A stretch of 56,046 nt of DNA from an uncultured Clostridia bacterium (lineage in GTDB: Bacteria; Bacillota; Clostridia; TANB77; CAG-508), in NCBI GenBank assembly GCA_947628845.1, contig CANRBK010000001.1:1-56046 (forward strand), in the 5' to 3' direction. Under the pieces are notes generated by a model, which was not told the DNA's origin, did not search any database, and saw only the letters and a program-made list of their open reading frames with translations. The translations under genes and the position numbers were made by a program. Positions within the stretch are counted from its first letter, which is position 1; each line of letters begins with the position of its first letter. Below are positions 29,001 through 45,479 of the stretch, one piece after another.

Positions 29001-32000
29001 GAATTAAAACCATTAGAGGTTACACTAGAATTATCATCTAATGGAACAGCTGAATATCAATATGATAAATCATTTAACTCATTAATAGATGAGATGAAAG
29101 CAAATCCAGAGGGCACATTTAATTTAACTAAAGATTATGATTTAGCAGGATATGCAGCAAATAATGATGATTCTACATCAATTATAGATTTCGAATTTAA
29201 AGGTATTTTAAATGGTAATGGACACAGAATATATAATTTAGGAAAGCCTTTATTCAATACACTAAAAGATGCAACAATTGAAAATATTATAATTGATAAG
29301 CCAGAACCTAAAATTTTAAGTAATACAGCGATTCTTGCTAAATTAGTAGAAGGTACTACAATTAAAAATGTTCATATCATGAATCCTATTTGTAATTTTA
29401 CTGGTCATGCCGGTATAATAGCATTTGATGTAAAGAATAAATCTGTTATAGAAAGTTGCAGTGTTACTAACATAGTAGGTAACTATAATGGATATGCGCA
29501 ACTTACGAGTGGTTTTGTAACTAATTTATATGATTCTACAATTAAAAATTGTTATCTACAAGGAAAAATTGGTGGAGGATGGCATTTTAATGCAGCATTT
29601 GTTAAATCAGCAGATAAATATTCTGAAATATCTAACAATATAGTTAATGTAACATACACACCAAGTTGGGATAATAACTATGGCGGTAATGGAGGATTAA
29701 CATACACACCAGATGGTGCATTACTAAAAAATAACTTATGTTTAATAGAAAGTGGTAAAGCAAGTATAATACATTATAATGGTTCTCTTAATAAAGATTC
29801 AAAAAATAATTATCAATTAGAAGAATCAACAGCACCAAAAAATGAAAACGAAAAGGGTATTGAAACAATATCTAAAAAAGATATTACATCAGAGTTCTTT
29901 AAAAACATATTAGAATTTTCAAGTGAAATTTGGAATATACCAAATGATGCTTCAATTAGCAATTTACCAACATTAAAAAGTGTATCAGAATCATATAGTG
30001 ACAATGGAGTACAGCCAGAAAATTCTAAAGTTTATATACCAGATTATAATAGAGTTACTAAGTTAGCTGAATATAAGAAAAATAAAGAAATTACATATCA
30101 TAATATGTATAAGATAATGCCATTTTATGATGCAAAAGAATTAATAAATGATGGAAATAAGATACCAGATGGAAACATTTTAAATACAAAACTAATTAAA
30201 TACATAGTTCCATATAACAAAGACGGAAAAATGGTTACGTATTTAACAACAGAAAATTATAATAGTTTAGGTAAAATCAAGATGGTATTCGAAGATGGTA
30301 CAACTCAAGAACATCATATAGATTTTGACGATTATTATGGAAACGTAGCTTCTTATATGATTTCTGATTTAAAAATAGGATATAATTATAATAGGTATGT
30401 AATAGATACAAAATTGAAAATAGTTCAAGAACTTATTGAAGAAGCGTCAAAATATGAATTTACTAGAGATTTAGAACCTCTTACTACAAAAATAGAAGAT
30501 AGTAGATTATATAAAGAGCACTTTGAAAAAGTAACTAAAAACCATATTCCAGAATTTGTAGTAAATAGTTTAGTAAACTTAGGATATACACCAGCATTTG
30601 AAAGTGACGTATTAGATAATAAAATAAGACAAGAACTTATAGATACAAATAAATTAAAACAATTATTATTTGCATATAATTATTTTACTTACTGGTATAA
30701 TCTAGATATGCAAGGTATAAATCTTGCAGATGCAGTTATGTTCCAAGCTAACCAAATGTTTGATGATAGAATGAATTTAGAAAATATGTCTTCAAACTTA
30801 ATAAATGAAAGCAACTCCGCAACAAATGGAACAGCAGGATTTTATAATAATTATTTAGCATCTTTAACAAAATGTAGCAATTTAGGATTATTCTTAGACT
30901 ATTATGTAACAACATTAACAGATTATAAAGATGGAAATGAGTGGTTTAAAGATAACTTTAAAGGTGGTATATATGAAACTGTAGATATCGAAAGAAATGG
31001 AACTGATTATACAATTTGGGATCATGTTAAAAAAGATGGTAAAGTACAAAATGATATATTACCAGCTCTAACAGTGCCAGAAAACTCTATGTTTATAATA
31101 AGTGCACCAACACAAGTATGTTTCGGTTCATTACGTGTATATGTAAATAATCCAAATGATGAAAAACAAATAGAACAATTTAGAGAAAATAAATTAAAGC
31201 TATATTTAGATCAGATAAAATCTTTCTATGTATTTGGATATGATTTTTGGGGAGCAGATACATTGAACAAGTATTGTGATGTACAATATGATATGAGAAC
31301 AACATATACAGGTAGACGTGAAGAAACAGTTTACAACAATCCATTAACGACAGAAGAAAATTATCATAAATACTTTATAGAAGCAATTAACAGATGGGCA
31401 GGAACATCTGGAGGAGCTTATGCTAATGGTAGTGAGGTATTCTGGAATGTAATTAAAATGCTAGATGGTGGATTCAGAGTTTCAACACATGAAACATTAC
31501 ATAATCAGGATAGTAAAATATTCATGAATAATTATGGTCGTAGAGGTGGAGCAGAAGATTATGCAGCTGGATTCTTACAACAATATTATAGAGATGGATG
31601 GGTAAGTCCAAATATATTTGATGAAGAACCAAATAAAGAAAACACTACACAAAACCTTCATCGTTCAACTGTAAATACTAATGATAAGTTAACAAAATTC
31701 TATAGAAACTATTTTAGAACAAATGACTTTTTAGATTATATAGAAGCACAAGCATTCTTTAAACTAAGTGATGAAGAAAAAGCTAAACTTGTTACACAAG
31801 TATCTTATCCAAAAAAGAGTGATGCAGAGCAAGACGAAGGAGATAGTACAGTAGCATATCAACCTCTAACACTTGATACAGTAAAAGCTATGAAATTAGA
31901 TAGCATAGAAAAACTTTGGGATAATCGTATAATGTTAAGACCTAAAAATAAAGAATATGAAGTACATTCACCAGGAGCAGATACAGATTCAATCTTCAAT

Positions 32001-32540
32001 ATTCACTGGTATCAACCACATGCTGATAACGATCGTCCAGATGGAGCAAACTTTAAATATTTAGCATGGCAAATGGCAGGTGAAAAAGGTTACTATGATG
32101 GTTTAACTGCATACTATAGTTTATCTTATGTAGGTCAAAAAACACAAAGACCAGGCTTAAAAACAACTGACTTAATAGCATTACAATATATAACTGGTGA
32201 TAATACAATGACATATAAGAGATTTAAGATTGAAAGATATAATGAATTAGCAGAGTACTATAATAGACAAGATACTTATATAGATGCACAACAAATTTGT
32301 AAAGAATATTATAATGCCTTACAAGCAGATGCTAAAAACAATGATAGAAATCTTACATTGAGTACAGCAGTTAAGAGAAAGTACTTCAGCTTGCTAAGAA
32401 GTGAAACACAAGACTTCACAATAGATCCATTTAGCCAAAAGACAAATGCAGCAGTGTATAAGACAGAAAATATAGTAAATAATTTAAATGGAAACGAATC
32501 AGAAAGTGTTATAGAGAATCAAGCAGAAACAATTGAATAA
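20049..32540 (+). CDS. Giant (4,163 aa) surface protein: signal peptide, cohesin, TM hairpin, dockerin, Pro/Thr linker, Ig-like super-repeats, C-terminal M26 (Zmp/IgA1-protease-like) zinc metallopeptidase
   Basis: AAGGTGG RBS lies 8 nt before the ATG at 20049 (MKKISIFLLTIIISLVITTNVKA), so that start is preferred over the caller's GTG at 20037. Domain evidence is given in the sub-features and findings. HETLH is at 31488-31502. Confidence 0.9.
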   Translation: MKKISIFLLTIIISLVITTNVKAADNVILKSTKDKVNLGEEITISLDLNVENIISLYAYTAKLSYDKDVFEIIEKDNFEESENWSDITYNTKNNKFALINKEGDTKTNSLQIKLKVREDATPGKTIIAVNSITASDGEKDIKLDSESVEVMILKDGLAENESIPINTENEVTEENTIIEVEKDYSWIAYILIALMIIIFIFVIYYYIKSEQEETPTNKRITIISTSIIILIILLIFIIIILADKKADVNKDSQVDYEDTKDIIEYLLEIKNPNEDENISDKDINKDGQITIGDVAKSVNQATNQSYKNSSSNIKNSNKTTSSSEQTNPNEPVTPSEPTTPNEPTSPSEPANPSEPTTPSEPIKATIISSMPTNYYVEKGKNVEITYTIEDNTNEDVKQIRINGVAIAVTKVSDGVYKISAPIDGTIPQNRKVKLEVTEIIYTTEVVSTIHTTEVEILKLVPTITDDYITHKEDKSILHFNLVDEDDTFISGKVVVIAEDGTKTEKEFTHNGNNSIEIEISDFIKYNIKIEVTYDLDTNKNDNVNKKENEIIKEHEVLLEKNYNLQVTDFKLVSVTEDIVTLQFTSTNETQNKYYIENVIINNKEYTVIREGNTYIVNVPTEDFGKERSRLILQEVIINYIGFDKEIYFNDIEDILVFKTHPTATIDGIIVGENQNTISVNNIKIIDNDNTINKKYAVLKYGENIVSKKEITENAVTFNTENIENIYKAGKYTIEIAADYDAVDGKEHIVETIGTSEEFTIAICAQIVSSELNTYPKKNENMTIKYKIKDNTDEQVTAIYINGEKRDATKVEENVYSVSYTAPETSGPASITASKICYGTEEIVVTNKVDNIDVLKTKPYLLNKQEDDFEIYEDFANKTITVVFTIVDPDNASIEKEGYVTLAAGHFTDTSGNNMPKYNIGEKTTITFKDVTNGSYMLQIYTPPYDLDSNPNDDKNHYIDVSNGSRTAMRIVEFMQDPSQFHVDNITAKTDLKGTTKYLNKNEKYKLSFTADAINTSDQYYYPQYIRIKGDSNISERTFELERNGKTYITKEYLDGYDNIGPTEVEIESIILNNNEVISLTDKKLQIEVLKEKLDISDFVVNMDSQAEKATITYNMTDTDNSFISGKIVITDTENEEEQKIITIEKGKTSYDVKLTPFKNYTAELFITYDLDGDNTLGSENQKEEIFATANIELKVDYELSISDLQVVNIDKEKSVATLTFKSTNVSKHKISFVKVEGQEELCGVGYNKETDTYTFEYKINSEKLATKERTEIKIKQVKLDNNDELDIAQEIAAIIFKNKPTIENLKLEVIDNIKITAAFDVKDTDNTLNYLYVGLKNSAGNEVIEDTLEPTDRDVTFDITEPDKYTIVVKGSFNLIDGEEHNKDVLKESDEVAEIQVNAKILESILQNKYPNKNETIEIQYKIMSNTNFKPTKVTINDNKEYELIPTGKPDIYKISYQVSDVPGQVDLKVSKIYFENEQFVTLETPYIDSIDVLKSVPIVNITSEDFVEKGLVMFNIDVTDPDGAMTSGKAFVHENEGVKTLESGPNTLIVNVEPDTSHTLTIEIEYDLDSNTIQETENKNKSTISEKRIFTLTSNYNLEINNLHAINPTTGEDIKYVNKGEQIQLRFNSVNSTELTPKKVFLNDMQNEESDGTLYDVYPVENSKNEYYVNLTAENKAGNQKFEIESVILSSGKTINKEQFKDNKNPIVDLVILKTKPTISGYTSSNVGNSVIVTFNITDNDKALNNSKIKLINEITNVEITSKDITEGTNNHTFDALEPGVKYIIRLENSYRLSDDGKNDNTEIFKDDHIEITKKEESNFKARNLKVTERVPINKKAQVSFENGVMSYQDVDKITIDDVEYSVEKDDKGVYKLELEPKEKGVNTIQVQNAKIGEKTFPINRPLSYTYEFAIPEAKEVTEIEEEAGKAIIKYKLEDPDKSIRGLTAYMKNSSGSVATQINVEKYSIENGVENIVEMSLLKLNTYSIELRATCDIGNGTTEEKTLFEKDKISPPQVTVIKNEIDKEYVEKGGKVVLTFVINTNVDSDVKKIYINQDGYNVEKVLDEDKKVIPDTYTVTLEAPKEAGVFEQNVTSIKIGDSQIDADYDKDLEKNKVCIKVLKDVPTLTHFIVNEQEGKITFKVNDEDKALSKSINSKLIVKQEDREVGTAELNKGGTEYDLDLEKIGMTAKSYPQPYNVVVNSTYDLRPDAPENMNIFQKIKNFFTGNKNEVKTIANGDTTENEDGEEEPEEPKEGIRVSDIFNKNIELTGNISYNLDFEDKGRYYLFNMKTPVEVEFDCSTGTRYKVEKVILEGKEYPVVITKELGDNKYTYQAMYIPSSYSQESIQYNKIILENGKAFDINETIPCMIVQAEPTFSITNFTEDTKERKVRFGYKLVDDDKKLADSPTFTLKDSQGSILQTIKAKDGENMVEFDIPDPPTSIYNLSVTVPKYVVSGWDYTEIWEAYNDSHKSSVTTSILSSEIQNKYPKKGETIEIIYNISSTRVVLIDKEDHTNQDKAVSITKMIINGKEYDVETLDEKDYGKEKYRVYYTAKDDDGIEEINVSKILFSNGDEEEFPRKDKIDILKETPQIVDFKTENNIETGKVTFKFKVLDPDSVLGTNSIYAQVDENGETQPVNIGENTLTFDAKLNQLSKFKVKATYDLDSDQLTTETDDNSYEMNTIFEKPFILTEEYAINFSNIKKYNSKGEETEYFEKNEDIKLTYECTTNWQEIYPELIVINGENYTPQKVDNEPNTYFVKLKSANNAGKADITFDRILLNSGNEVSLTGQKTTYEVLKDIVAVDEFTYTIGDNNDKIQLQINIKDIDSSNKNLTLEIKDEYDHPININKSTLNVGKNIIEFDKTSAGKYFASIYSTYDRDMDENNSKNNATNERIHYSIITVNTRYIEMKDIVDIELYKYGKTGEAERVDSITPESLNPIENCLVKVIMKDIPEFYSNITKYSIEDNKLKLVLEYTDAMVFNGNAELKPLEVTLELSSNGTAEYQYDKSFNSLIDEMKANPEGTFNLTKDYDLAGYAANNDDSTSIIDFEFKGILNGNGHRIYNLGKPLFNTLKDATIENIIIDKPEPKILSNTAILAKLVEGTTIKNVHIMNPICNFTGHAGIIAFDVKNKSVIESCSVTNIVGNYNGYAQLTSGFVTNLYDSTIKNCYLQGKIGGGWHFNAAFVKSADKYSEISNNIVNVTYTPSWDNNYGGNGGLTYTPDGALLKNNLCLIESGKASIIHYNGSLNKDSKNNYQLEESTAPKNENEKGIETISKKDITSEFFKNILEFSSEIWNIPNDASISNLPTLKSVSESYSDNGVQPENSKVYIPDYNRVTKLAEYKKNKEITYHNMYKIMPFYDAKELINDGNKIPDGNILNTKLIKYIVPYNKDGKMVTYLTTENYNSLGKIKMVFEDGTTQEHHIDFDDYYGNVASYMISDLKIGYNYNRYVIDTKLKIVQELIEEASKYEFTRDLEPLTTKIEDSRLYKEHFEKVTKNHIPEFVVNSLVNLGYTPAFESDVLDNKIRQELIDTNKLKQLLFAYNYFTYWYNLDMQGINLADAVMFQANQMFDDRMNLENMSSNLINESNSATNGTAGFYNNYLASLTKCSNLGLFLDYYVTTLTDYKDGNEWFKDNFKGGIYETVDIERNGTDYTIWDHVKKDGKVQNDILPALTVPENSMFIISAPTQVCFGSLRVYVNNPNDEKQIEQFRENKLKLYLDQIKSFYVFGYDFWGADTLNKYCDVQYDMRTTYTGRREETVYNNPLTTEENYHKYFIEAINRWAGTSGGAYANGSEVFWNVIKMLDGGFRVSTHETLHNQDSKIFMNNYGRRGGAEDYAAGFLQQYYRDGWVSPNIFDEEPNKENTTQNLHRSTVNTNDKLTKFYRNYFRTNDFLDYIEAQAFFKLSDEEKAKLVTQVSYPKKSDAEQDEGDSTVAYQPLTLDTVKAMKLDSIEKLWDNRIMLRPKNKEYEVHSPGADTDSIFNIHWYQPHADNDRPDGANFKYLAWQMAGEKGYYDGLTAYYSLSYVGQKTQRPGLKTTDLIALQYITGDNTMTYKRFKIERYNELAEYYNRQDTYIDAQQICKEYYNALQADAKNNDRNLTLSTAVKRKYFSLLRSETQDFTIDPFSQKTNAAVYKTENIVNNLNGNESESVIENQAETIE
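20124..20510 (+). other. Cohesin-like module at the N-terminus of the giant Zmp-like protein
   Basis: NVILKSTKDKVNLGEEITISLDLNVENIISLYAYTAKLSYDKDVFEIIEKDNFEE...IIAVNSITASDGEKDIKLDSESVEVMI. Confidence 0.6.
20604..20774 (+). other. Two-helix membrane hairpin
   Basis: WIAYILIALMIIIFIFVIYYYI, then the charged loop KSEQEETPTNKR, then ITIISTSIIILIILLIFIIIILA. Confidence 0.75.
20784..20950 (+). other. Dockerin module (class C)
   Basis: Ca-loop signatures DVNKDSQVDYED and DINKDGQITIGD, each followed by a helix (TKDIIEYLL and VAKSVNQA). Confidence 0.6.
21027..21132 (+). repeat. About six tandem 18-bp (6-aa) Pro/Thr/Ser/Glu linker repeats
   Basis: The protein reads NPNEPV-TPSEPT-TPNEPT-SPSEPA-NPSEPT-TPSEPI. 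The DNA is ccaa(g/a)cgaaccaacaa(c/g)(t/c) with small variations. Confidence 0.8.
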
Positions 32541-32578: not shown

Positions 32579-32630
32579 AGTTAATTGCAAACCTTCCTAC
32601 AAAGTAAGTAAAAGTTTGTTTTTTAAAATT

Positions 32631-32682
32631 TGGTTGCGGGGGGTAGACTCGAACTACCGACCTTTGGGTTATGAGCCCGACC
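32631..32682 (-). pseudogene. 3' half of a disrupted initiator tRNA-fMet gene (element-chromosome junction)
   Basis: The reverse complement reads GGTCGGGCTCATAA-CCCAA-AGGTC-GGTAG-TTCGAGT-CTACC-CCCCGCA-A-CCA. That gives the anticodon loop (CAU), variable loop, T arm, acceptor 3' strand and CCA, but no D arm or 5' acceptor strand. Confidence 0.8.
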
Positions 32683-32780
32683 ATTTCCCAGTATTTTTAT
32701 ATTTTAAAAATATTATATATTCTTACTCTTGCAACCATTTCGGAAGTATTTAATACTTCGATTTTTTATATAAATTTATC

Positions 32781-32802
32781 AATGTCCCTTTAATGTCCCT
32801 TA
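32781..32802 (+). repeat. Tandem arm-type repeat (A/T)TGTCCCTT(T/A)A x2 near the integrase end
   Basis: aatgtcccttt-aatgtccctta. The 19-mer tgtccctttaatgtccctt (32783-32801) recurs identically at 42434-42452. Confidence 0.6.
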
Positions 32803-32811
32803 AAATGTATT

Positions 32812-34071
32812 TTAAGTACAGACATTACATTTCATTCCCTTTAAAATTTCAGGTACTATTTGAATATTATTTATAGGCTCTAGCTTTTCGATTTCAGCTT
32901 TATTTGTATCTTCGTCATATTCAACATAGTAATCCATTGTTGTACTGGCTAAGGTATGACCTAAATATTGTTTTATCTGATTTACAGGTATGTTTACATC
33001 TATACATCTTGTTGCAAATAGATGTCTTAATTGATATACACTTAAATGTTTAAAATTATGTCTTTTCAAAATCTTATCAAGTGTGTCCCATAAATAATCA
33101 CTACTTAAAGCATGTCCTAGACTATTCATAAAAATATACTCGTCATCTAGTTGTTTTTTATTTGTATATCCCTTTTGTTGCATAACATATAGCATATATG
33201 TATGCATTAAATTGTTTAACCATTTTTGCAATGGTATATTTCTATAACTAGATAGTGTTTTTAAGTCTTTTTCTTCAAATGTGGACTTAACTTTTTCAAA
33301 GTTATCATCATAATAGGTTATTTTCCCATAATTATCTCTTACTTTTACATTAGCATCTTCATAGCTGTAATGTTTCCATTTCATACCACCACTTTCTCCT
33401 GGTCTAACACCTGTATTCATTATAAAGATGTAGCATAATCCATTCGTTTCAGAAAGTAATATTTCTATCAACTGCTGTTGTTCTGTTGGTGATATTGTAG
33501 GTTTCTTTTTCTGCCTTTGAACTTTTGGTGTACGAATCGTTGGAATAGGGTTAAATTTTATTATTTTATCAATTTCTGCATCTGCAAATGCCATATTTAA
33601 AATACTTTTTATTTCCTTTATTGTTTTAGGAGAATATTTTTTTATGCCTTTATTTTCGTTGCCAGTTGTTAAGTCAGAGAAATATTCTTGAAGAATTAAC
33701 CTATCTAAAGATTGCATAGGGTAGTTACCTAAATAGGGAATAATGTTTGTTTTTATTTTTTCAATGTACCCTTGTAGAGTTCTAGGCTTAACAAACGACT
33801 TTTTATGAATACGAATCCATTTCTTTAACCATTCTTCTAAAGTTATTTTGTCTTTTTCTACATATTCATTATCGTTTGCTTCTTGTTTTGCTTTTATCAT
33901 TTCTTGTACTAGAATTCTCTTATCTTTATTAAATAAAGATATTTGCTTTGATTTTCCATTTACTTTTATTGTTATTCTACCTTCATATCCACCATTTTTT
34001 GGTCTAATAGAGCCCATTCCTCTGGTGTTTCTTTTTTTCTTTACAGACTGATTTTGTGAAGTTTTTACCAT
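32812..34071 (-). CDS. int: Tyrosine site-specific integrase
   Basis: GGAGG lies 7 nt before the ATG at 34071 (MVKTSQNQS...), preferred over the caller's 34116. The N-terminal arm-binding-type segment is RGMGSIRPKNGGYEGRITIKVNGK. The C-terminal catalytic signature is VYQLRHLFATR...YLGHTLASTTMDYY (R..H-x-x-R..Y). Confidence 0.9.
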   Translation of the reverse strand: MVKTSQNQSVKKKRNTRGMGSIRPKNGGYEGRITIKVNGKSKQISLFNKDKRILVQEMIKAKQEANDNEYVEKDKITLEEWLKKWIRIHKKSFVKPRTLQGYIEKIKTNIIPYLGNYPMQSLDRLILQEYFSDLTTGNENKGIKKYSPKTIKEIKSILNMAFADAEIDKIIKFNPIPTIRTPKVQRQKKKPTISPTEQQQLIEILLSETNGLCYIFIMNTGVRPGESGGMKWKHYSYEDANVKVRDNYGKITYYDDNFEKVKSTFEEKDLKTLSSYRNIPLQKWLNNLMHTYMLYVMQQKGYTNKKQLDDEYIFMNSLGHALSSDYLWDTLDKILKRHNFKHLSVYQLRHLFATRCIDVNIPVNQIKQYLGHTLASTTMDYYVEYDEDTNKAEIEKLEPINNIQIVPEILKGMKCNVCT

Positions 34072-34164
34072 AACTTTGCCTCCATTCAATACAGAGAACA
34101 TTAAAAGTAAAAGCACAATATTTAATGTTCTCTATTATAGGGCAAATTTCATTGGAAAGCAATG

Positions 34165-34362
34165 TTAAACAAAAAATCTTCCAGAATTTTGATCAAACCA
34201 GTCTTGTAATTTTTTCTTGTTAATAACAATTCTTCTTTTAAACTTAATGCAAGGAAAATCTGGGTACTTTATTAATTCACTCATTAAGTTTTTGCTAATA
34301 CCTAACATATTAGCTGCTTCACTAACATTTAAGCCTATTTTTTCATTAAAATTTTCATTCAT
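34165..34362 (-). CDS. Excisionase / MerR-type helix-turn-helix DNA-binding protein
   Basis: 65 aa, LNVSEAANMLGISKNLMSELIKYPDFPCIKFKRRIVINKKKLQDWF, immediately upstream of int on the same strand. Confidence 0.6.
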   Translation of the reverse strand: MNENFNEKIGLNVSEAANMLGISKNLMSELIKYPDFPCIKFKRRIVINKKKLQDWFDQNSGRFFV

Positions 34363-35665
34363 TTATATCACTTCCATATATAGATTAGGCACATTTATCA
34401 TAAACTGCCTTATGGAAGGGCAAACTTTTCGGGTCAACACATACTTTTATTAATTTTTTTAGCAAATCACTTCCTTTCTCATATATAATTTTATAACCTT
34501 TTTTTATTAATTTCAATAAGCACGGCTAAAAAAATTTTTTCGTTGATATTTAGGGTTTTTTAAGCACTTTTAGTATGGAATTTTAAATTCCTTAGGCATT
34601 TTTTTATTATAACTTATGGTATTTGTTTTAATTAAAAATAAAAACTATAAAGGCTAATTTTAAAGCATAAGACTTAAACAATTTATTTAAAATTGTAAGT
34701 GCTTTTTCAAAGAAAAATAGTAGTATCCTCCAGTTAGAAACAACAAATATAACTTGTCTTACAAAAATTTTAGCCAAATTTAATAATTATCCACATTTTC
34801 TTAACAATGTATTGATAAGAACAACAGAAATCAAAGAAAATAACAAAAAGATTTATCCTATTTAATGAGAATTCTTTAAAAAAGGATATTATGGTGATAA
34901 GTTAAAAGTAATAAATTTTTTACAAGATTTTGGCTGTGCTTAAGTTAAGCCGTTTACAAAAGTTATTTAGAGATAAAAACGATAATTTTAGAAATATTTT
35001 ATATAGTAATATGGTAAGTAAAAAAGGTGATATATTCGTTCATAATACACGAAAAATCAATGATAATACGTTAGTAGCAAGATATATTATGCAAGTATAA
35101 AAAACGACTTATAAGATTTTATCAAGGCTATTAGCCAGTATATATAACTTTTCTTACAAATGAACATTTATTATATCATATTATTGTAGCAACTGAAGAT
35201 AATAAAAAAGGAATTGTAAAATTTATAAATTCCTATCCCTTTTCACTCCTTAAAACTGATAAATTAATTTTGGCATTTCCTAATAGTGGAGAGCTAGAAA
35301 ATATTGACTGTGAAATACCATTTTTATATACTACATATCCTGAACTTGTGGTATTAAATAATGATGGAGATGAGGAAAATAAGGAAATTTAACTTTTTTT
35401 ATATTTTATACTCTTTTATAGTTTTTGTCTAGAATTCTAAAATTACTTTTCCTATTTATATAGTTTGCAACTATATAAATAAAATATTTACTAAATATTT
35501 TAAGTTGATTTTTATTATTATTTGATGAATAAAAATAGTATGATACTTGAGAGTATGATATAATCAATAAAGATAAATATATCATCTTACTTATTTTTTA
35601 TAAGAAAATTTTTTTGAAACTTTTTTTTAATTAATGGGTATGTATTATTGAGAGTAGGGTAAAAT

Positions 35666-37282
35666 ATGGAAAAAGATTTGGATATGAAATTATATAATGA
35701 ATATTTACAAGGAAAAGAAGAAGCTTTTGAATTATTATACAATAAATATAAAGATAAAATAAAATATTTTATTTTTAATTTAATAAAAGACTATCAGAAA
35801 GCTGAAGATATTACTCAGGAAGTTTTTATATATATATTACAAAATAAAGTAAGGGAAGGCTATAGTTTTAAATATTATATATATCTAATTGCGAAGAGTA
35901 GAGCACTAAATCATATAGATAAAGAAAAAAGAAGGTCAATAATATCAGAAAAATATTTTCTAGAAAAAACAGAGGAAACGGAAAAAGATATAAGTGATAT
36001 TATAACACAAAAAGAAACAGAGAAAGAACTTATCAAAGCTATAGATATGTTAGATGAAAAATATAGAAATGCAATATATTTAGTAAAAATAGAAGAATTT
36101 TCTTATAAAGAAACAGCAGATATACTGGGAGAATCAGTTCAAAATATAAAAAATCTTATCCATAGGGGCAAAAAAGAATTACGTAAAAACTTAATAAAGA
36201 AAGGATTCGATGAAATGAATAAAGTCTCAAAAATGCTAATCATTATATTGTGTATAAGTATTGTATTATCAGGAGTTGTTTATGCTACAATGAAAATTTA
36301 TAAAAATATAAAAAGCAAAGCAGAAATGACTCCTACATATACAAGTAAAATTTCTACAATAGATACTAACAAGGTTTGGATAGGAACGTTTAATTTAGTT
36401 TGGAATGACTTTATGAATGATGTAATTGGAGGGAAAATTGAATTTGAGAATGAATATTCTGAATTAGCAAATGAATTAAATAAACAGAGTTTCACAGTAG
36501 AAAATTTATCAGAAGAAGATTATTTTAAAATGCATGGAGTTGCAACTTTCGATTTAAAAAATATAATTGAAAAAGGTATAAGCCAAAAGTTTAATGAAGA
36601 AAGCAAAATATTAGAAGAAGTAGAATGGGGAAATCCAGATGGTTATGTCTTGTATGCAATGTTAAGAAAAAAATTTAATTATTTAGAAAATTTTCCAACG
36701 TTACAAGCAAAGACATTTGGTAATACAGAAGAGAAAATTAAATACTTTGGAATAGAACCTAATACTAATCAAGATGCAAGTAAAAATATAGAAATTCTAT
36801 TTTATAATTCAAAAGATGATTTTTCAATAAAGTTAAAAACAATAGAGGGAGAAGAAATTTATTTATATCGAACATCTGGAGAAAATAAATCATTTGAGGA
36901 AAATTATCATGAAATGTTGGAAAAACAATTACAATATTCAGGAAATAAAAAGTGGCAAAAAAATGATATCTTAAGAATACCTTTTATAAAAATAAACGAA
37001 GAAATAAATTATGATGAATTATGTGGCAAATATATAAAAGGTACAGATTGGTATATTAGACAAGCTTTACAAACAATAGAATTTGAATTGAATAATTATG
37101 GTGGATGTGTTAAAAGTGAGGCATTAATAGAAGCGTTAAAAAATAGCATAAGCAAAGTAGATAGAGAATTTATATTTGATGATACATTTTTATTATATTT
37201 AAAAGAAGAACATAAAGAAAAACCATATTTTGCATTAAAAGTTGATAATACAGATATATTGATAACATATAATGAAAATTAA
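35666..37282 (+). CDS. ECF-type sigma-70 factor fused through one TM helix to a ~330-aa serpin-like extracytoplasmic domain
   Basis: Sigma region 2: YKDKIKYFIFNLIKDYQKAEDITQEVFIYIL. Region 4: YRNAIYLVKIEEFSYKETADILGESVQNIKNLIHRGKKELRKNL. The TM helix is MLIIILCISIVLSGVVYA (~36221-36283). The C-terminal domain shows serpin-like motif order: GYVLYAMLRKKFNYLENF, IEILFYNSKDDFSIKL, ILRIPFIKINEEINYDEL, ALQTIEFELNNYGG, FIFDDTFLLYLKE. Confidence 0.6.
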   Translation: MEKDLDMKLYNEYLQGKEEAFELLYNKYKDKIKYFIFNLIKDYQKAEDITQEVFIYILQNKVREGYSFKYYIYLIAKSRALNHIDKEKRRSIISEKYFLEKTEETEKDISDIITQKETEKELIKAIDMLDEKYRNAIYLVKIEEFSYKETADILGESVQNIKNLIHRGKKELRKNLIKKGFDEMNKVSKMLIIILCISIVLSGVVYATMKIYKNIKSKAEMTPTYTSKISTIDTNKVWIGTFNLVWNDFMNDVIGGKIEFENEYSELANELNKQSFTVENLSEEDYFKMHGVATFDLKNIIEKGISQKFNEESKILEEVEWGNPDGYVLYAMLRKKFNYLENFPTLQAKTFGNTEEKIKYFGIEPNTNQDASKNIEILFYNSKDDFSIKLKTIEGEEIYLYRTSGENKSFEENYHEMLEKQLQYSGNKKWQKNDILRIPFIKINEEINYDELCGKYIKGTDWYIRQALQTIEFELNNYGGCVKSEALIEALKNSISKVDREFIFDDTFLLYLKEEHKEKPYFALKVDNTDILITYNEN

Positions 37283-37496
37283 GAAAAATTTTAGAGTAAC
37301 TATTAAGAATTTATCATATATTTTGTTAGATACTTAATAGTTACATATAGATTCTTCGGAAAATTACTTGACAAAGTAAGACTATCATAAAAGTTGTGTA
37401 AATCGGATTTCTGTTCGACTCTGTCAAGTAAAGTGTGTAATTTTTTTTTGATTTTAAAATTTTTACAAAATCGATGACTAAAAATAGCCATCGGTT

Positions 37497-38201
37497 TTAT
37501 TTTTTTAATGTTTCTATACAATTTGTAATAATATCTTTTGCAGTTGGGCAAGATTTGTTCTCTTTTCCATATGTTTTGCTAATATAAGTTCTATCTTCAG
37601 TATATCTCCACATAGATTTTATTGCTCTATTAATATTCCATTTGACTTTTTGATTGGTAGTATTAAATTGCGTTGCTACTAGTGAGTATAGGCTATTTTC
37701 CATTTTTAATAATAATTTTTCATTTTTATTTGCCTCTAGAATAGCTTTTATTAGATATTGAGTACCAGAAGCACTCATATTAAATTTCAGATCTTTAAAA
37801 ATTGTTATAATATTTTTTCTATATACATCTTCTTCTAAATCTATCGCAAGTCTGTTTACATAGTTAGTTAACAGAGATAAATCTTTTGTTTTTGAGAATA
37901 TGAAATCTATATTTTCTTTATTTGATATTTTATAGATATAGTCTGAATATCCAGAAACGATAATAATTCTAGAATTTATATCTTCTTTTTGAATTTTAGT
38001 AATAACTTCTATTCCATCCATCTTAGGCATATTTAAATCTAATATTACAATATCAGGTTTTAATTCTAAAATTGAGTTGTAAGTACTTAGTCCATCAGTA
38101 GTTATATCTACTATTTTTAAATTTTCATTTCCTCTAATTATACTATTAAATAAATACTTCAAAAAATGAGTATTGTCATCTGCAATTAATATATTAACCA
38201 T
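37497..38201 (-). CDS. Spo0A-like response regulator (receiver domain plus Spo0A_C-type DNA-binding domain)
   Basis: GAGGAG lies 6 nt before the ATG at 38201 (MVNILIADDN...), preferred over 38222. Receiver residues are DD, ILDLNMPKMDG and a conserved K. The C-terminus GTQYLIKAIL...LYSLVATQFNTTNQKVKWNINRAIKSMWRY...PTAKDIITNCIETL parallels Spo0A ([28 protein letters not shown]...PTNSEFI). Confidence 0.65.
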   Translation of the reverse strand: MVNILIADDNTHFLKYLFNSIIRGNENLKIVDITTDGLSTYNSILELKPDIVILDLNMPKMDGIEVITKIQKEDINSRIIIVSGYSDYIYKISNKENIDFIFSKTKDLSLLTNYVNRLAIDLEEDVYRKNIITIFKDLKFNMSASGTQYLIKAILEANKNEKLLLKMENSLYSLVATQFNTTNQKVKWNINRAIKSMWRYTEDRTYISKTYGKENKSCPTAKDIITNCIETLKK

Positions 38202-38489
38202 AATATTCTCCTCAAAAATCATATAATATCTTTTAATGTAAAATACCGATTAAAATCAAAAAGGTTTCAAAATTGTCTATTTTTGTCTATTTTTTTAAAA
38301 ATAATATTTAAAAGATGTATTATATACAATATATATCTTGATTTTCAAAATCAATTTAGTTAAATTTAAAAACTTTCTTAAGAAGGGAGGGGATGAATTA
38401 TTATTTGTCTAGAGAAAATTGCAGAAATAGATTAAATGTAATTTTTTTGATTTTGTAATATAAAAAGTTATATTGAAAGGGGAATAATT

Positions 38490-39392
38490 ATGAATATGAA
38501 AAAATTTTTCATTATTTTTGCACTTATAGTATTGTTACTTTTATTAACTTTTGGTTGTGTATTAGCATCTAAGGATACTAAGTCTTTTGAATATCAACAA
38601 TATGAAAATATAGTTGATACATATAGCATTTCTACAAGGGCATCACAACAAGATGTAATACAAAAAGGAAATGAAATACTTGATATATTAAATGCAAATT
38701 CGTTGGCTAGAACTGCAAATCCATCAAATGATGACTACACTGTTGAAAAAATTATAAAAGATAATAATTACAATACTCAAAGCTATTTATATACAAACAA
38801 TAAGAATTATGAGATTCAATTAGATACTACAGATTTAAGTTTAACAGGAATTAATTCATTAGATATAAATTATAATCTTTCTTCAGAAAATATAGACAAA
38901 GAATACGTGCAAGAATATATCAATAGTATTTACACAAATTTAAACTTAGATAGTAGCTACAAACTAGTATACTTAGAGAAATTTGATGGTGCATTATGGG
39001 AAGCAGACTATCAAAAAGAATATGATGGAATTTATAATCCATATGAAGCAGTTAAAATAATATTTTCACCTATTGAAAAAAAGATTGCTAGTCTAAAAGT
39101 TTTTAAAATGAAATATACTGCTAATCAACAAAATAATACTACTAAAGAGATGGCTAAATCAACTTTTAACACTAAATTTGCAAATACAAAAGCAAATAGT
39201 ATATCAGAACTTAAGACTGAAATTGTATTTATAAGACCCAATAATTTAGTGGATTCTAATAGAGATGATGGTTCAAAAGCATTATTTAATAATAACATAA
39301 AAAAAGCATGGAAAGTTACAAATAATGAAGGTCTTTCTTTATATATTGATATAGAATCTGGTGAAGTTATAGGAGGTGAGCAGTTAAGATGA
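38490..39392 (+). CDS. Secreted (possibly lipid-anchored) PepSY-like domain protein
   Basis: Signal peptide MKKFFIIFALIVLLLLLTFGC. The C-terminal segment KKAWKVTNNEGLSLYIDIESGEVIGGEQL resembles the PepSY signature (W-x-V...Y-(I/V)-D-x-x-(T/S)-G-E-(V/I)). Confidence 0.5.
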   Translation: MNMKKFFIIFALIVLLLLLTFGCVLASKDTKSFEYQQYENIVDTYSISTRASQQDVIQKGNEILDILNANSLARTANPSNDDYTVEKIIKDNNYNTQSYLYTNNKNYEIQLDTTDLSLTGINSLDINYNLSSENIDKEYVQEYINSIYTNLNLDSSYKLVYLEKFDGALWEADYQKEYDGIYNPYEAVKIIFSPIEKKIASLKVFKMKYTANQQNNTTKEMAKSTFNTKFANTKANSISELKTEIVFIRPNNLVDSNRDDGSKALFNNNIKKAWKVTNNEGLSLYIDIESGEVIGGEQLR

Positions 39393-40021
39393 GAAAACAT
39401 ATAAAAATGTTATTATTATTTTCTATATTATTATCTTTAATATCATTTTCTGGTAATAAAACTTATGCTGCTGAAGGAGCAAAGGCATTTGGAAACAGTG
39501 CTATTAGTACATATATAGACGATATGGATTTTGCCTATGGAGGGTTTAGAAAATTAGGATATAGTGCTTCTACTAGTACAGCATATTATAATAATGTAAT
39601 GAATTGGATTAATACAAGTAGTAACAACTATGGTTTCTATATTACTACACATGGTCCAAGCAATGCATCTGCTGCAGCTGGCACAAGTTTCTTTGTTACT
39701 CAAGAAGGAAATTATATTTATCCTAGTAATATAACTGGTAATTGGCATCTAGTATATATTGATGCTTGCAATAGTAAAAGATCTGATTCATTTGCGAATG
39801 CTTTTAGAATATCAGGGTATTCAAATAGAGCTTATCTAGGATGGGCAACAGAAGTTGGTATGTCATCTGCAAACCAATTTAATGATTATTTTTGGAATAC
39901 ATATGTAACCACTCGTTCAATTCAAGCTGCTGCCGTTGCAGCTGCTGGACAAGTTCCTGGCTCGGGAACTACTCCTATTAGATTTGCAGGAGATACTGGT
40001 TGGTATGGATATTCATCATAA
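39389..40021 (+). CDS. Small secreted clan-CD (gingipain C25 / caspase-fold-like) cysteine peptidase candidate
   Basis: The start ATG overlaps the upstream TGA (ATGA at 39389-39392). The signal peptide ends TYAAEG. The His-Gly and Ala-Cys dyad context is FYITTHGPS...(39 aa)...LVYIDACNSKRSDSFANAF, compared with gingipain NYTGHGS...FDVACVNGDF...FAEAL. Confidence 0.4.
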   Translation: MRKHIKMLLLFSILLSLISFSGNKTYAAEGAKAFGNSAISTYIDDMDFAYGGFRKLGYSASTSTAYYNNVMNWINTSSNNYGFYITTHGPSNASAAAGTSFFVTQEGNYIYPSNITGNWHLVYIDACNSKRSDSFANAFRISGYSNRAYLGWATEVGMSSANQFNDYFWNTYVTTRSIQAAAVAAAGQVPGSGTTPIRFAGDTGWYGYSS

Positions 40022-40042
40022 GAATAAATACCTATAAAACAA

Positions 40043-40068
40043 AGGGGCTGTAAAAAAGTCCCTTTTTA
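40043..40068 (+). terminator. Rho-independent terminator
   Basis: aggggct-gtaaaaa-agtccct hairpin (one G-U pair) followed by a T5 run. Confidence 0.55.
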
Positions 40069-40343
40069 TTAATATCTTATCTATTTTAAAATATAATTTT
40101 TATTACTATTTTTTTAAAAATTATAACATTAGTCTAAATAAAAAACAGCTTATTTTTCAAAAGAATAGACCATTATATTTAAGTTTCTTTATTTAATGTA
40201 TTATAACTAATATTAAAATCATCTTTAAAAAAATCTTTATAATTAGCCCCATACTTAGTATCTAAATTATATACAAGTGGAATTAACTCACGAAAATACA
40301 ATTTATAATATAATCCAAATTACATAAATTATTATTTTTTCAA

Positions 40344-41267
40344 CTAGCAATAATATTTTCTTTCTTTATCAATATATTTTTCCAAATCTATCACACAATA
40401 ATTGGCACCAGGTAGTTCTTTTCGTAATCTTGTTTCCAACTCTGTATTACAAATAATACATGCATTTTTAGTAGAATTCTCCCTTATAAAATATTTGAAT
40501 CTTGTAATTTTTTCAGTATCTATAAAATAAAACATATTAATAAATTTATCTTTATTATTTGTATATTCACAAAAACTATATTCAGATAAATAAGCTCCTT
40601 TATAGCATTTATCTATAACTTCTTTCCATCTTATACTATGTAAATATTTTAATTTTTCTCTATTAATAGCATTATCTTCAATTATTAATATTTGATTCAA
40701 CCCAAAAGCAAAATCATTCAAATTTATTCTATTTATATCATCTACTAAAATAATAATATTTTTGTATTTCATTTCTTTTTGTATATCATAAGCTACAGAT
40801 TCAATATATTTACTATCATACTCTTTAGGAATTTGATAAGCTAGGTATTCAAATCCGTTTATATTAAATATTCCTATAAATCTTCTACCTGTTGTTGTAA
40901 ATACTCTTTTATCTTTTATTGCAAATGATGGTATAAAATCGACTGTTTTACAATTATGATAAAAAGCAGCTATATTACTTAACCTTAATAATCTTTCTCT
41001 ATATTCTTGATTTTTATTTAATTTATTATATTCAAAGTTTAATAATTTTACATATTGGATTCCTGATCCACCCAATACTAACATCCACCTAATTTTTCTT
41101 AAGAAATCTTTATCTATTAAATTTTTAATTCTATTTCTATAATACCTACTACTATTGAAAAAATACTTTGCATCACTTACATTTAAATACTGATATTTTG
41201 CAATAAATTTTATCAAAGAAATCTCATCTTCATTTGTCGGAAAATAACTCACACTTATCACCTCCAA
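40344..41267 (-). CDS. Mobile-element protein, replication-relaxation-family-like (winged-helix N-terminus)
   Basis: The N-terminus EDEISLIKFIAKYQYLNVSDAKYFF...RNRIKNLIDKDFLRKI has the pattern of Replic_Relax-type proteins on Firmicutes plasmids and ICEs. No catalytic motif was recognised. Confidence 0.4.
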   Translation of the reverse strand: MEVISVSYFPTNEDEISLIKFIAKYQYLNVSDAKYFFNSSRYYRNRIKNLIDKDFLRKIRWMLVLGGSGIQYVKLLNFEYNKLNKNQEYRERLLRLSNIAAFYHNCKTVDFIPSFAIKDKRVFTTTGRRFIGIFNINGFEYLAYQIPKEYDSKYIESVAYDIQKEMKYKNIIILVDDINRINLNDFAFGLNQILIIEDNAINREKLKYLHSIRWKEVIDKCYKGAYLSEYSFCEYTNNKDKFINMFYFIDTEKITRFKYFIRENSTKNACIICNTELETRLRKELPGANYCVIDLEKYIDKERKYYC

Positions 41268-41480
41268 TACTAACTAATAATTTACCAATAAATTGTCCGT
41301 TGGTAAGATATTCGATAGCTACGCTATCAAATACTTACCTCCACTTCAAAAACTATATCATTAAAATCATAAAACACTTGAAATATAAGCATTTTCTTGT
41401 AATTTGAAATATGCCAAATTTCTTTAATAAAAAAAGTTAATTTTGCTACATTTTTTGTAACTATAAAATTCACATTTTTT

Positions 41481-42170
41481 TCATTTTGTACTACCATTTA
41501 TGATAGATTTTTTATAATAATTTAATAAATTATCTGGATTATTACTCAATGCTAAAAAATATAAATTTACTAAATTTTCTCTATTTACATTTTGAAGTAT
41601 AAATTGAAAATTGTTATTATATAAATCATACAAGACATATATGATATCTTTTATCATATTAATTTTATCTTCTTTCATATATTGAAGCATATAAGAATCA
41701 TAATTAAAATCTAATCTTTCAATTATTGCTAAAAATTCCTTTGGAATTTCGTTACTATTATTTATAATTAAATAAAATAAATCATCTATATTAGATTTTA
41801 TATTATTATCTTTAACAATTTTGTTAATACACTCTTTACTTTTTGGTATATAGGGGTATTGATTTTTTTGATAATAGGGTAGATCTACAATATAAATATT
41901 TCTTGATACTATTTCTTTGTTTTCATTTCTTATAACTTCTGTTTTTATATATCCAAGTTCTTGTAAATGTGAAATCCATCTACTAACTGAGACGGCTGTT
42001 ACATTATATAAATCTGCAAAGTATTTATTTTGAGCATAACAATAACCATTTTTATTGGCTAATGCTGTAATTTCTCCATATAATAACTTTTCGGCATATT
42101 TTAAATTAGTGTCATACCTAACTGTAGCAGGTATTATTGCATAATAATTTGGTTGTTCTTTTTTATTCAT
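41481..42170 (-). CDS. Helix-turn-helix (HTH_36-type) replication-initiator/replisome-organiser-like protein
   Basis: NYYAIIPATVRYDTNLKYAEKLLYGEITALANKNGYCYAQNKYFADLYNVTAVSVSRWISHLQELGYI. This N-terminal pattern is typical of phage and plasmid Rep-type HTH proteins. Confidence 0.55.
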   Translation of the reverse strand: MNKKEQPNYYAIIPATVRYDTNLKYAEKLLYGEITALANKNGYCYAQNKYFADLYNVTAVSVSRWISHLQELGYIKTEVIRNENKEIVSRNIYIVDLPYYQKNQYPYIPKSKECINKIVKDNNIKSNIDDLFYLIINNSNEIPKEFLAIIERLDFNYDSYMLQYMKEDKINMIKDIIYVLYDLYNNNFQFILQNVNRENLVNLYFLALSNNPDNLLNYYKKSIINGSTK

Positions 42171-42242
42171 ATATTATGCGCCTCCATATCTTTAAATTTT
42201 GCTGAAGGGCAAATTTATAAAGTATGAAAGTATTTATAAACG

Positions 42243-42278
42243 AAAAAAAGAGACTTTACTTTTTATAGTAAAATCTCT
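42243..42278 (-). terminator. Rho-independent terminator downstream of the element-borne tRNA-fMet
   Basis: On the minus strand, the agagattttact-ataaaa-agtaaagtctct hairpin is followed by a T7 run. Confidence 0.55.
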
Positions 42279-42330
42279 GTATTAAAAATTACACTTAAAG
42301 GGACATCCCTTTAGGTAAAAACTTCCGAAT

Positions 42331-42406
42331 TGGTTGCGGGAGAAGGACTCGAACCTTCGACCTTCGGGTTATGAGCCCGACGAGCTGCCAACTGCTCCAT
42401 CCCGCG
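42331..42406 (-). tRNA. tRNA-fMet (CAU), initiator type, complete, carried inside the element
   Basis: The reverse complement folds as CGCGGGA-TG-GAGC-AGTTGGCA-GCTC-G-TCGGG-CTCATAA-CCCGA-AGGTC-GAAGG-TTCGAGT-CCTTC-TCCCGCA-A-CCA (76 nt). The C1:A72 mismatch and three consecutive G:C pairs closing the anticodon stem are the bacterial initiator hallmarks. Confidence 0.9.
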
Positions 42407-42433
42407 ATGTTTCATTAAATATTGTGCTTTTTT

Positions 42434-42452
42434 TGTCCCTTTAATGTCCCTT
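42434..42452 (+). repeat. Second copy of the tandem arm-type repeat
   Basis: tgtccctttaatgtccctt is identical to 32783-32801. An inverted single copy, ttaaagggacat, lies at 42295-42306. Confidence 0.6.
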
Positions 42453-45441: not shown

Positions 45442-45479
45442 AATTTCTTTGCAAATAAAAATGAAAGGGGTAAGATATA

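Follow-up and report, generated by a model that had tools for sequence, protein, structure and literature searches.

A sigma factor joined by a signal-peptide-like segment to a shortened, divergent serpin-like ectodomain in gut Clostridia

We analysed a stretch of 56,046 nucleotides (nt) from an uncultured Clostridia bacterium (contig CANRBK010000001.1), referred to as the window in the following, which is AT-rich with 21-32% G+C in 2-kb windows. On its plus strand at 35666..37282, within an integrative element of about 9.8 kb, lies an ATG-initiated open reading frame (ORF) of the ORF list that encodes a protein of 538 amino acids (aa). In this single polypeptide, a sigma factor of the extracytoplasmic function (ECF) type is followed by a membrane segment and by an ectodomain with remote similarity to serpins. 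The gene belongs to a family of fusions which may link extracellular protease activity to gene expression.

The sigma domain is intact and of the ECF (group 4) sigma-70 type. Region 2 is found at aa 24-90 (35735..35935, plus strand; Pfam PF04542 Sigma70_r2, E 7.7e-10) and region 4 at aa 121-172 (36026..36181, plus strand; PF08281 Sigma70_r4_2, E 2.9e-14, and PF04545, E 1.7e-7), while with the NCBIfam model TIGR02937 for sigma70-ECF the protein reaches 73 bits, above the cut-off of 42.9. Regions 1.1 and 3 have no Pfam match in the sigma part, neither before region 2 nor between the two regions. This is in good agreement with a first-pass annotation, made from the letters and the ORF list, which had read an ECF architecture with regions 2 and 4 only. 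As checks it had proposed profile searches for both sigma regions, which are both matched, and for Serpin, a structure prediction of the ectodomain followed by a fold search, and a survey of the distribution of the fusion. A profile of the close homologs searched against the PDB matched sigma factors only (SigW, RpoE, SigH and SigK) and gave no match for the ectodomain. A blastn search of a phage collection with the fusion gene gave no match.

Region 4 ends at aa ~176, and the only hydrophobic segment of the protein, with a best 19-mer hydropathy of 2.56 at aa 190-209, follows from aa 187 (aa 187-209; 36224..36292, plus strand). It was delimited by hydropathy and by the pattern of the junction in 47 distinct fusion proteins. 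The first-pass annotation had placed a transmembrane helix at ~186-206; the single hydrophobic segment stands, but its signal-peptide anatomy had been missed. A Lys-rich n-region, MNKVSK, leads into a hydrophobic core of ~15-17 residues, a helix-breaking Ser-Gly and then the conserved V-Y-A(207)↓T(208). After the helix-breaking Gly, 44 of the 47 fusions read [V/T/A]-Y-A and two read V-Y-G. Judged by inspection of the -3/-1 pattern, V-Y-A↓T satisfies the -3/-1 rule and is a candidate site for type I signal peptidase, i.e., a putative site-1 site at which the protein would be cleaved. In relatives without a sigma part (e.g., L021 and P0144; L numbers refer to related loci), the equivalent segment is an N-terminal signal peptide or anchor.

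The juxtamembrane segment which follows (aa 208-234; 36287..36367, plus strand) has a predicted local distance difference test (pLDDT) score below 50 for residues 1-28 of the ectodomain and carries the motif ...K(A/T)xMTPTYTS. The fusions have the form '...KA.MTPTYTS' (window positions 36302-36331, aa 213-222), and the more distant relatives that stand alone have '(I/V)xVxPT(M/Y)xS'. The motif is kept family-wide although it lies outside the modelled fold, at low confidence; possible roles are a docking strand, a site for partner binding or a site of processing.

The signal-peptide-like junction offers a simpler, precedented release route, namely signal peptidase followed by a site-2 protease (S2P). 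Our preferred reading, to which we give about an even chance, is a one-polypeptide transmembrane signalling protein of the sigma/anti-sigma type, whose sigma factor would be released by membrane proteolysis with the state of the ectodomain as the gate. Only ~10 residues separate region 4 from the hydrophobic segment, and no anti-sigma domain (ZAS, FecR-like or class I anti-sigma domain) was matched there by Pfam or NCBIfam. Nothing obviously blocks binding to core RNA polymerase, so the sigma factor might be active while tethered, like regulators of the ToxR/CadC type, and the ectodomain might modulate it by oligomerisation or merely co-localise an inhibitor with a regulator. We regard this as very improbable: so short a connection to the membrane would be a steric obstacle to forming the holoenzyme and binding a promoter, the described fusions of sigma factors to transmembrane segments are activated by proteolytic release (PMC8999054), and the junction looks cleavable.

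A more serious competitor to the gated release that we prefer arises from the same junction. The protein could be a constitutive pro-sigma factor whose internal signal peptide is cut co-translocationally every time. The serpin-like part would then be a secreted or wall-associated protein, perhaps a protease inhibitor or a binding protein, and S2P would free the sigma factor, giving, together with the autoregulatory promoter, a bistable on/off circuit and no sensor. The canonical signal-peptide anatomy, with its short core and an A-x-A-type site in 46 of the 47 fusions, fits this well, as do near-identical ectodomains that carry an ordinary N-terminal signal peptide and no sigma part (L021, 73% identical to the query ectodomain; P0144; P0152). 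The juxtamembrane segment is predicted to be disordered and is probably accessible, so that nothing visibly masks V-Y-A↓T and processing could be constitutive, a point that tells against a gate. S2P is known to clear signal peptides (PMC8144685), and the autoregulation described below is conserved. Unregulated release combined with positive feedback, however, gives no obvious input, and the split relatives are laid out like regulated sigma/anti-sigma pairs. The strongly conserved fusion with its bait-like variable loop also suggests that the two halves are functionally coupled. We therefore consider constitutive release unlikely, though far from negligible.

The similarity of the ectodomain to serpins emerges at the family level only, since direct searches with the query came back empty: aa 207-538 alone are without a match at E<=1 in Pfam and NCBIfam, and a phmmer search of the PDB sequences returned nothing meaningful. 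When 92 diverse relatives were scanned singly, Pfam Serpin (PF00079) was matched at E<=1 by 29 of them (best E 3.5e-7), and every other non-sigma Pfam family by at most three. The proposed Serpin search thus fails for the query and succeeds for part of its relatives. The Serpin-matching relatives that were examined score 19-22 bits against a gathering threshold of 27 and cover model positions ~295-370 only; a detailed Pfam scan of ten 'serpin-looking' relatives gave no Serpin match. When all PDB sequences were searched with a profile built from the 92 relatives, 42 matches resulted, all of them serpins, led by miropin 5ncs (E 0.013) and alpha-1-antitrypsin (E 0.024) and in register across s5A, the hinge, the reactive-centre loop (RCL), s1C, s4B and s5B.

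Profile comparison by hhalign with human alpha-1-antitrypsin, whose sequence was verified against the PDB, aligned ectodomain residues 227-323 to residues 283-391 (E 6.7e-5, probability 64%). Under permissive settings the alignment is colinear from end to end, with only the last ~95 columns confidently aligned. The best conserved part is a C-terminal core (37163..37243, plus strand), recognised by conservation and alignments, with the motifs R-x-F-x-F, F..E and P-Y equivalent to s1C, s4B and s5B. It is in register with alpha-1-antitrypsin 362-391 and with miropin 5ncs, and aa 502-512 differ from the PROSITE serpin signature PS00284 by one mismatch. Most of the serpin motif pairings of the first-pass annotation hold: those at hF, s3A, s6A and from s5A through the RCL to s4B and s5B agree with the independent hhalign map, and the pairing of 'IEILFYNSKDDFSIKL' is one hairpin off.

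The proposed structure prediction gave a confident result. AlphaFold2 with a multiple sequence alignment of the 92 sequences modelled the ectodomain with a pLDDT of 87.6 and a predicted TM-score (pTM) of 0.85, superseding an unusable model (pLDDT 58) from a shallow alignment of 37 sequences with 70-76% identity. In a Foldseek search of the PDB the top 50 matches are all serpins (E 1e-8 to 1e-6, prob 1.00), among 322 matches at E<=1e-3. The TM-scores of the top 50 are low, however, at 0.35-0.49 with a root-mean-square deviation of 8-12 Å. Since the top 50 Foldseek matches are all serpins but their TM-scores are low, we describe aa 235-538 (36368..37279, plus strand; ~305 residues) as a shortened, divergent serpin-like fold, an assignment on which AlphaFold2, Foldseek, the family profile, Pfam and hhalign converge.

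Along with the empty query searches and the low TM-scores, its length argues against a full serpin: ~70-80 residues of the canonical N-terminal third are missing (~305 versus ~370-400 residues), and judging from the succession of secondary-structure elements together with the hhalign map, no counterpart seems to exist for helix A or for part of the hC-hE/s2A region. By three independent routes, i.e., Pfam, the PDB profile search and AlphaFold2 with Foldseek, the ectodomain is a shortened, very divergent, remote homolog of serpins and not a canonical serpin. The serpin-like ectodomain of the first-pass annotation stands in this sense of remote homology, with the query itself below the Serpin thresholds.

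A HMMER scan of 1.84 billion representative proteins assigned 1,827 clusters (50% identity) to the ectodomain family at E<=1e-3. Most members stand alone, are 330-400 aa long and carry a signal peptide, a lipoprotein signal or an N-terminal anchor; others are fused to Sel1, ankyrin or Big_14. Their hosts are gut Clostridia, but also Gastranaerophilaceae and Elusimicrobiaceae. Where a public name could be retrieved, it is 'hypothetical protein', 'uncharacterized protein' or 'sigma-70 family RNA polymerase sigma factor' only. We compared 73 related loci, one genome per species, almost all of them metagenome-assembled genomes of uncultured gut Clostridia from humans, rabbits, goats and deer. In this survey of the distribution, sigma factor and ectodomain share one reading frame at ~56 of the 73 loci.

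Split relatives occur as well. At L062, L073 and L074 an ECF sigma gene (178-195 aa) overlaps the start of a gene of ~400 aa, whose product has a short cytoplasmic N-terminus 'MDNKEFI..IY.KY', a transmembrane segment and the serpin-like domain. These sigma factors are 40-41% identical to the fused one (E~1e-34), the partner ectodomains are 41-50% identical, and the promoters, near-identical to that of the fusions, read TGTAAC-N16-TGTAT. The partner at L062 matches Pfam Serpin with 19 bits. L061 has a similar partner gene and a far more distant sigma factor (22% identical), and the protein at L021 is sigma-less and consists of the anchor and the ectodomain only. From these split and sigma-less forms it follows that the serpin-like domain is the membrane sensor module of this ECF clade, with sigma-less use also possible.

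The existence of split versions, and of a few frameshifted fusions (L055, L063, L065-L068), could be taken to mean that a mis-assembly or read-through has joined a sigma gene to a gene for a secreted protein. This is effectively refuted. The identical 538-aa protein is encoded on 11 independent public contigs, and the in-frame fusions at ~56 of the 73 loci come from different species-level genomes and conserve the junction; the fusion is thus no assembly artefact.

Further variants of the architecture were observed among the related loci. In some genomes fusion paralogs are paired in tandem or a few kb apart (L011 3728-7296, L058 5407-8993, L069 4225-13175). Some fusions reach 683-697 aa, and those scanned, L040 and L047, carry a C-terminal DUF3221-like addition; L051, L054 and L071 also belong to the loci with paralog pairs or long fusions. 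At L005 (12398-13998) an unrelated second ECF sigma factor (174 aa), followed by a single-pass membrane protein of 355 aa that is not serpin-like, lies beside the fusion homolog, so that several ECF systems can cluster on these elements. In the 796-aa protein encoded at L080 (368-2758), a signal peptide and a type I dockerin occur together with a match to chagasin-type I42 that stays below threshold (22 bits versus a cut-off of 27.2) and with a serpin-like domain; the protein looks like a possible cellulosome-borne double inhibitor.

Within the ectodomain, the most conserved and the most variable stretch lie side by side. The hinge-like GGCVKSEALI (aa 479-488, ectodomain 273-282; 37100..37129, plus strand) follows an s5A-like strand and aligns to the P15 Gly and hinge of serpins. 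It is the most conserved stretch among 37 close fusion homologs with 70-76% identity (entropy 0.07), and in the 92 diverse relatives G273 is kept in 98%, S278 in 85%, E279 in 91% and A280 in 86%; after the P15-equivalent Gly, the family reads G-x-(L/V)-K-S-E-A. The adjoining EALKNSISKVD (aa 489-499, ectodomain 283-293; 37130..37162, plus strand), marked as RCL-like by its entropy and low pLDDT, is the most variable of 322 11-residue windows in the close homologs (entropy 1.64 versus a mean of 0.60). Across the 92 relatives the loop has ~11 residues, an entropy of 3.2-3.9 bits and a varying length, and the sole internal low-pLDDT stretch of the model is ectodomain 282-286. A conserved hinge beside a hypervariable loop is the pattern of a serpin reactive-centre loop.

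Inhibitory serpins have a metastable native state, insert the loop after cleavage and form a covalent complex with the protease. Their hinge follows the consensus ExGTEAAAA at P17-P9, with small residues at P12-P9 (PMC8233489). In direct register the query reads N-Y-G-G-C-V-K-S-E and the family E-K-G-G-K-L-K-S-E, so that P17-P15 fit and P14-P9 do not. If an insertion of four residues is assumed, S-E-A-(A/G/V)-(I/M) resembles T-E-A-A-A and the consensus is fitted partly; the loop up to s1C is then one residue shorter than that of alpha-1-antitrypsin. The model places a strand at 273-279 after s5A (262-269); the two might be a single bent strand, or the loop might be partly inserted.

Because the hinge in the direct alignment reads G-G-C-V-K-S-E and not G-T-E-A-A-A-A, the usual rule predicts a non-inhibitory serpin (PMC8233489), which counts against our preferred reading. 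Loop proteolysis may be irrelevant, and the ectodomain a serpin-derived ligand sensor in which binding of a host or microbial molecule gates the site-1 cut, as lysozyme does for RsiV. Non-inhibitory serpins, e.g., CBG/TBG, HSP47 and PEDF, are used as binding scaffolds. The shortened and divergent fold with TM-scores below 0.5 and the family members joined to protein-interaction modules (Sel1, ankyrin, Big_14) are consistent with such a use, and RsiV is a precedent for ligand-gated cleavage by signal peptidase (PMC4183432, PMC6066255). On the other hand, a loop that is hypervariable in sequence and variable in length, next to a hinge that does not vary, is what one would expect of a protease bait, one relative has the chagasin-like inhibitor match, and at several loci the fusion is accompanied by a putative Cys-peptidase-like protein. 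Pure ligand sensing is in our view a rather unlikely account, and we return below to the gated release of the sigma factor.

The regulatory side of the system rests on promoters. ECF promoters have an AAC-containing -35 and a GT-containing -10 element and are usually autoregulatory. Such a promoter lies in front of the fusion gene (35615..35641, plus strand), with -35 TGAAAC at 35615-35620, a T-rich spacer of 16 nt and -10 GGTAT at 35637-35641, 24 nt before the ATG. A pattern search found a second copy, TGAAAC-N16-GGTAT, on the minus strand at 38243..38269, directly upstream of a response-regulator gene. In the 56-kb window there are exactly two copies of the pattern TGAAACYTTT-N13-GTNT, versus 0.03 expected. 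In the related loci (945 kb) the motif occurs 48 times, versus 0-4 times in shuffles, and 43 of the 48 copies lie directly upstream of sigma/ectodomain genes as self-promoters; the search for further targets near the related genes thus left five copies only. TGAAAC-N16-(T/A/G)GT(T/A/C)T sits 20-30 nt upstream of nearly all fusion genes, and the sequence further upstream is unrelated between loci. The fusion gene has a conserved ECF-type promoter, predicted from its sequence to be autoregulatory; this promoter and its second copy had been missed in the first-pass annotation.

The gene behind the second copy encodes a Spo0A-like response regulator (37497..38201, minus strand; Response_reg E 1.7e-17, Spo0A_C E 7.6e-15) of 234 aa from the ATG at 38201. 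A ribosome-binding site (RBS), GAGGAG, precedes this ATG, both ~40 nt after the ECF promoter, and the gene is called with the same 234 aa in L001-L004. The Spo0A-like regulator is therefore a candidate target of the sigma factor. A sigma-70-like promoter, TTGAAA-18-TATAAT with 11 of 12 matches, is located upstream of the ECF copy at 38348-38319 on the minus strand; the tandem arrangement of sigma-70-type and ECF-type sites suggests basal plus induced expression of the regulator.

In the reading that we prefer, the tethered sigma factor would be held at the membrane on the cytoplasmic side, with the ectodomain outside the cell. The first cut would fall on the outer face, at or near V-Y-A↓T, and the enzyme would be type I signal peptidase, which plays this part for RsiV and RsiP, or a different site-1 protease. 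What is left, the sigma factor with its signal-peptide stub, would then be cut by an intramembrane S2P of the RasP/RseP type. The timing would be set by the state of the serpin-like ectodomain. Since the exposed, bait-like hypervariable loop sits on a serpin-derived scaffold, an extracellular protease that attacks or binds this loop is the leading candidate for the cue. Weak pointers in the same direction are the L080 protein with its dockerin, I42-like and serpin-like parts and the putative Cys-peptidase-like neighbour of the fusion in 6-7 loci. The free sigma factor would transcribe its own gene, as positive feedback, and the gene of the Spo0A-like regulator from the TGAAAC-N16-GGTAT promoters.

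Several facts make this picture less secure. The analysis shows the domain layout, the distant serpin relationship and fold, the hinge beside a variable loop, the signal-peptide-like junction, the promoters and the fused, split and stand-alone relatives; how the protein sits in the membrane, whether it is cut, what the cue is and which way regulation runs are inferred, and cleavage, release and protease binding are proposals. A cut in the RCL leaves ~290 residues on the membrane side, so it must act via a conformational change that licenses a juxtamembrane cut; on its own it would not make an S2P substrate, and an extra coupling step is needed. The C-terminus exposed by the S2P cut might target the sigma factor for degradation. 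The extra promoter copy before the response regulator is specific to this island, and the Spo0A-like gene and two other neighbours, encoding proteins of 210 aa and 300 aa, adjoin the fusion in a minority of loci, i.e., the neighbourhood is not conserved. All in all, protease sensing, which the first-pass annotation had put forward as a hypothesis, is plausible as such, and RsiV-like release by signal peptidase and S2P is at least as likely.

A bolder version of the gated release can be formulated tentatively, and we rate it as a possible but doubtful extension. The protein would be a protease-activated serpin receptor: a specific extracellular protease, whether of host, competitor or element origin, would cut or bind the hypervariable loop, a conformational change of the serpin type would expose V-Y-A↓T to signal peptidase, S2P would free the sigma factor, and the element would reprogram its host via the Spo0A-like regulator. 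The loops of the paralogs would then form a repertoire of protease specificities, and the mini-serpin family of 1,827 clusters would be an unrecognised prokaryotic branch of the serpins, comprising inhibitors as well as sensors.

Sigma factors fused to membrane-spanning extensions and activated by regulated intramembrane proteolysis have been described, namely IutY and ECF48/52/53 (PMC8999054). IutY of Pseudomonas putida (ECF243), SCO4117 of Streptomyces coelicolor (ECF52), ECF48 and ECF53 likewise combine an N-terminal ECF sigma factor with one or more transmembrane segments and an extracytoplasmic sensor. Their activation by a site-1 protease and S2P was proposed or shown (PMC8999054), whereas here it would follow from the signal-peptidase-like site and the precedents. 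They carry a ZAS or FecR-like anti-sigma domain before the membrane, where the present protein has ~10 residues and none detected. Their ectodomains are FecR-like or carbohydrate-binding and their hosts Proteobacteria or Actinobacteria; here the ectodomain is serpin-like and the hosts are Clostridia. Among the 19 extension-bearing groups of the 2021 ECF classification, none is described as containing a serpin (PMC7826278).

In its membrane part, the protein resembles RsiV/SigV and RsiP/SigP. Among Bacillota, C. difficile included, the site-1 cut in RsiV and RsiP is made by signal peptidase (PMC4183432, PMC6066255, PMC8844934, PMC9044953), and RseP/RasP remove liberated signal peptides (PMC8144685, PMC5381017). 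Common traits, some of them predicted for the present protein, are a Firmicutes single-pass protein whose transmembrane segment ends on the outer side in a cryptic signal-peptidase site, subsequent cleavage by RasP, and an autoregulated ECF sigma factor which recognises a TGAAAC-type -35 element. In RsiV and RsiP systems, however, sigma and anti-sigma factor are separate proteins and the ectodomains are DUF4179/lysozyme-binding or penicillin-binding-protein-dependent, while the cleavage proposed here derives from the -3/-1 pattern. DUF4179 and RsiV-related families have no Pfam match in the fusion protein.

With the serpins proper (alpha-1-antitrypsin, miropin 5ncs, siropins and the Bifidobacterium serpin) the ectodomain shares the homology from s5A to s5B, a colinear secondary structure, the P15 Gly and a hypervariable position of the RCL. 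Those proteins have ~370-400 residues; the fused ectodomain has ~305, is tethered to the membrane and to a sigma factor, and has G-G-x-(L/V)-K-S-E-A in its hinge instead of G-T-E-A-A-A-A. An analogy for a cleaved serpin-like domain that gates intramembrane proteolysis is RsgI of Bacillota with its SEAL domains: the juxtamembrane domain is cleaved yet stays non-covalently assembled, and a later event licenses intramembrane proteolysis (PMC10556640). RsgI differs in its fold, in its separate sigma factor SigI and in its short membrane-proximal fragment, where here an RCL cut would leave the ~290 residues mentioned above.

Prokaryotic serpins are considered sparse. Their function is enigmatic, and prokaryotes are said to lack the eukaryotic-type proteolytic signalling networks of serpins (PMC8233489). 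Full-text literature searches found no description of a sigma-serpin fusion, just as none had been known to the first-pass annotation. The word serpin is absent from a review of non-canonical ECFs (PMC8999054), and a phylogeny of the serpin superfamily mentions no fusions or truncated forms and uses 'transmembrane' once (PMC8233489). An ECF sigma factor with a fused transmembrane regulatory extension is thus known, while the sensor domain is new and the signal-peptide-like tether unusual. A serpin-like domain wired to a sigma factor, whether fused or as an operon partner, would be the first direct link of this fold to bacterial transcriptional signalling. The family also exposes a large group of short, secreted serpin-like proteins, unannotated wherever the source name could be retrieved, and adds a fused ECF architecture without an anti-sigma domain and with a signal-peptide-like tether, for which the release mechanism is simple and testable. 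As the genes reside on integrative and conjugative elements (ICEs) of human and animal gut bacteria, and on this island would drive a Spo0A-like regulator, they may matter for the sensing of a protease-rich gut by such elements.

The element that carries the fusion gene spans ~9.8 kb (32630..42406, no strand assigned) and was delimited by Pfam and PHROGs matches, tRNA genes and repeats. On the minus strand it encodes an integrase (32812-34116), an excisionase-like protein with HTH_17 (34165-34362) and a replication initiator (41481-42170). A tRNA-Met gene (42331-42406, minus strand) marks one boundary and a 61-nt partial copy of it (32630-32690, 80% identical) the other. An exact 19-nt repeat, TGTCCCTTTAATGTCCCTT, is present at 32783-32801 and 42434-42452, and a tRNA-like fragment at 42591-42639 is 90% identical to 42364-42412. 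Judged from these sequences, the island ends (32630-32801, 42330-42639) suggest repeated integrations at tRNA-Met. The same island is found in a different flanking context in L002, and fusion homologs elsewhere reside in ICE-like regions with relaxase and type IV secretion system genes. Defence-system models matched no island protein.

The 1.3 kb between the excisionase-like gene and the fusion gene (34363-35665) contain no ORF longer than 59 aa, are uncalled in L001-L003 and have no Rfam match at E<=0.1; an origin, an oriT, a regulatory RNA or a decayed gene could be located there.

Two genes of the island for secreted proteins of 300 aa and 210 aa overlap by 4 bp (38490..40021, plus strand). 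Neither product has a match in Pfam, PHROGs, PADLOC or the PDB sequences. The first-pass annotation had called the second gene a peptidase (at 39389), a label that is not established by these searches or by its occurrence beside the fusion in a minority of loci. What speaks for it is a candidate pair, His88 ('THG') and Cys127 ('DAC'), of the 210-aa protein: both residues are present in 16 of 21 relatives, and both are missing in the other five. A catalytic dyad with pseudo-enzyme offshoots would give such a pattern, which is suggestive of a peptidase partner, though not of a general one. The family of the 210-aa protein is small, with 29 proteins and no annotation. Relatives of the two genes fuse both parts, e.g., in a 495-aa gene at L008 (11769-13256; blastp 2e-12), and relatives lie directly downstream of fusion homologs in L008, L035, L037, L058 and L069.

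Upstream of the island (216-32540), giant ORFs of 3416 aa (216-10466), 1365 aa (11773-15870) and 4167 aa (20037-32540) were observed, the last with Peptidase_M26_C according to precomputed Pfam matches in L001. Genes for a dockerin protein (10483-11499) and a cohesin protein (15930-16703) lie between them. By its domain content this region resembles a surface assembly of the cohesin-dockerin kind, with a huge M26-type metalloprotease as one of its parts. Just outside the other end of the island (42804-47241), the gene for an AAA_5/MoxR-like ATPase of 744 aa is followed by small ORFs and by the gene for a DUF2201 protein (460 aa) with a putative metallopeptidase and a VWA-like domain, together a commonly paired module.

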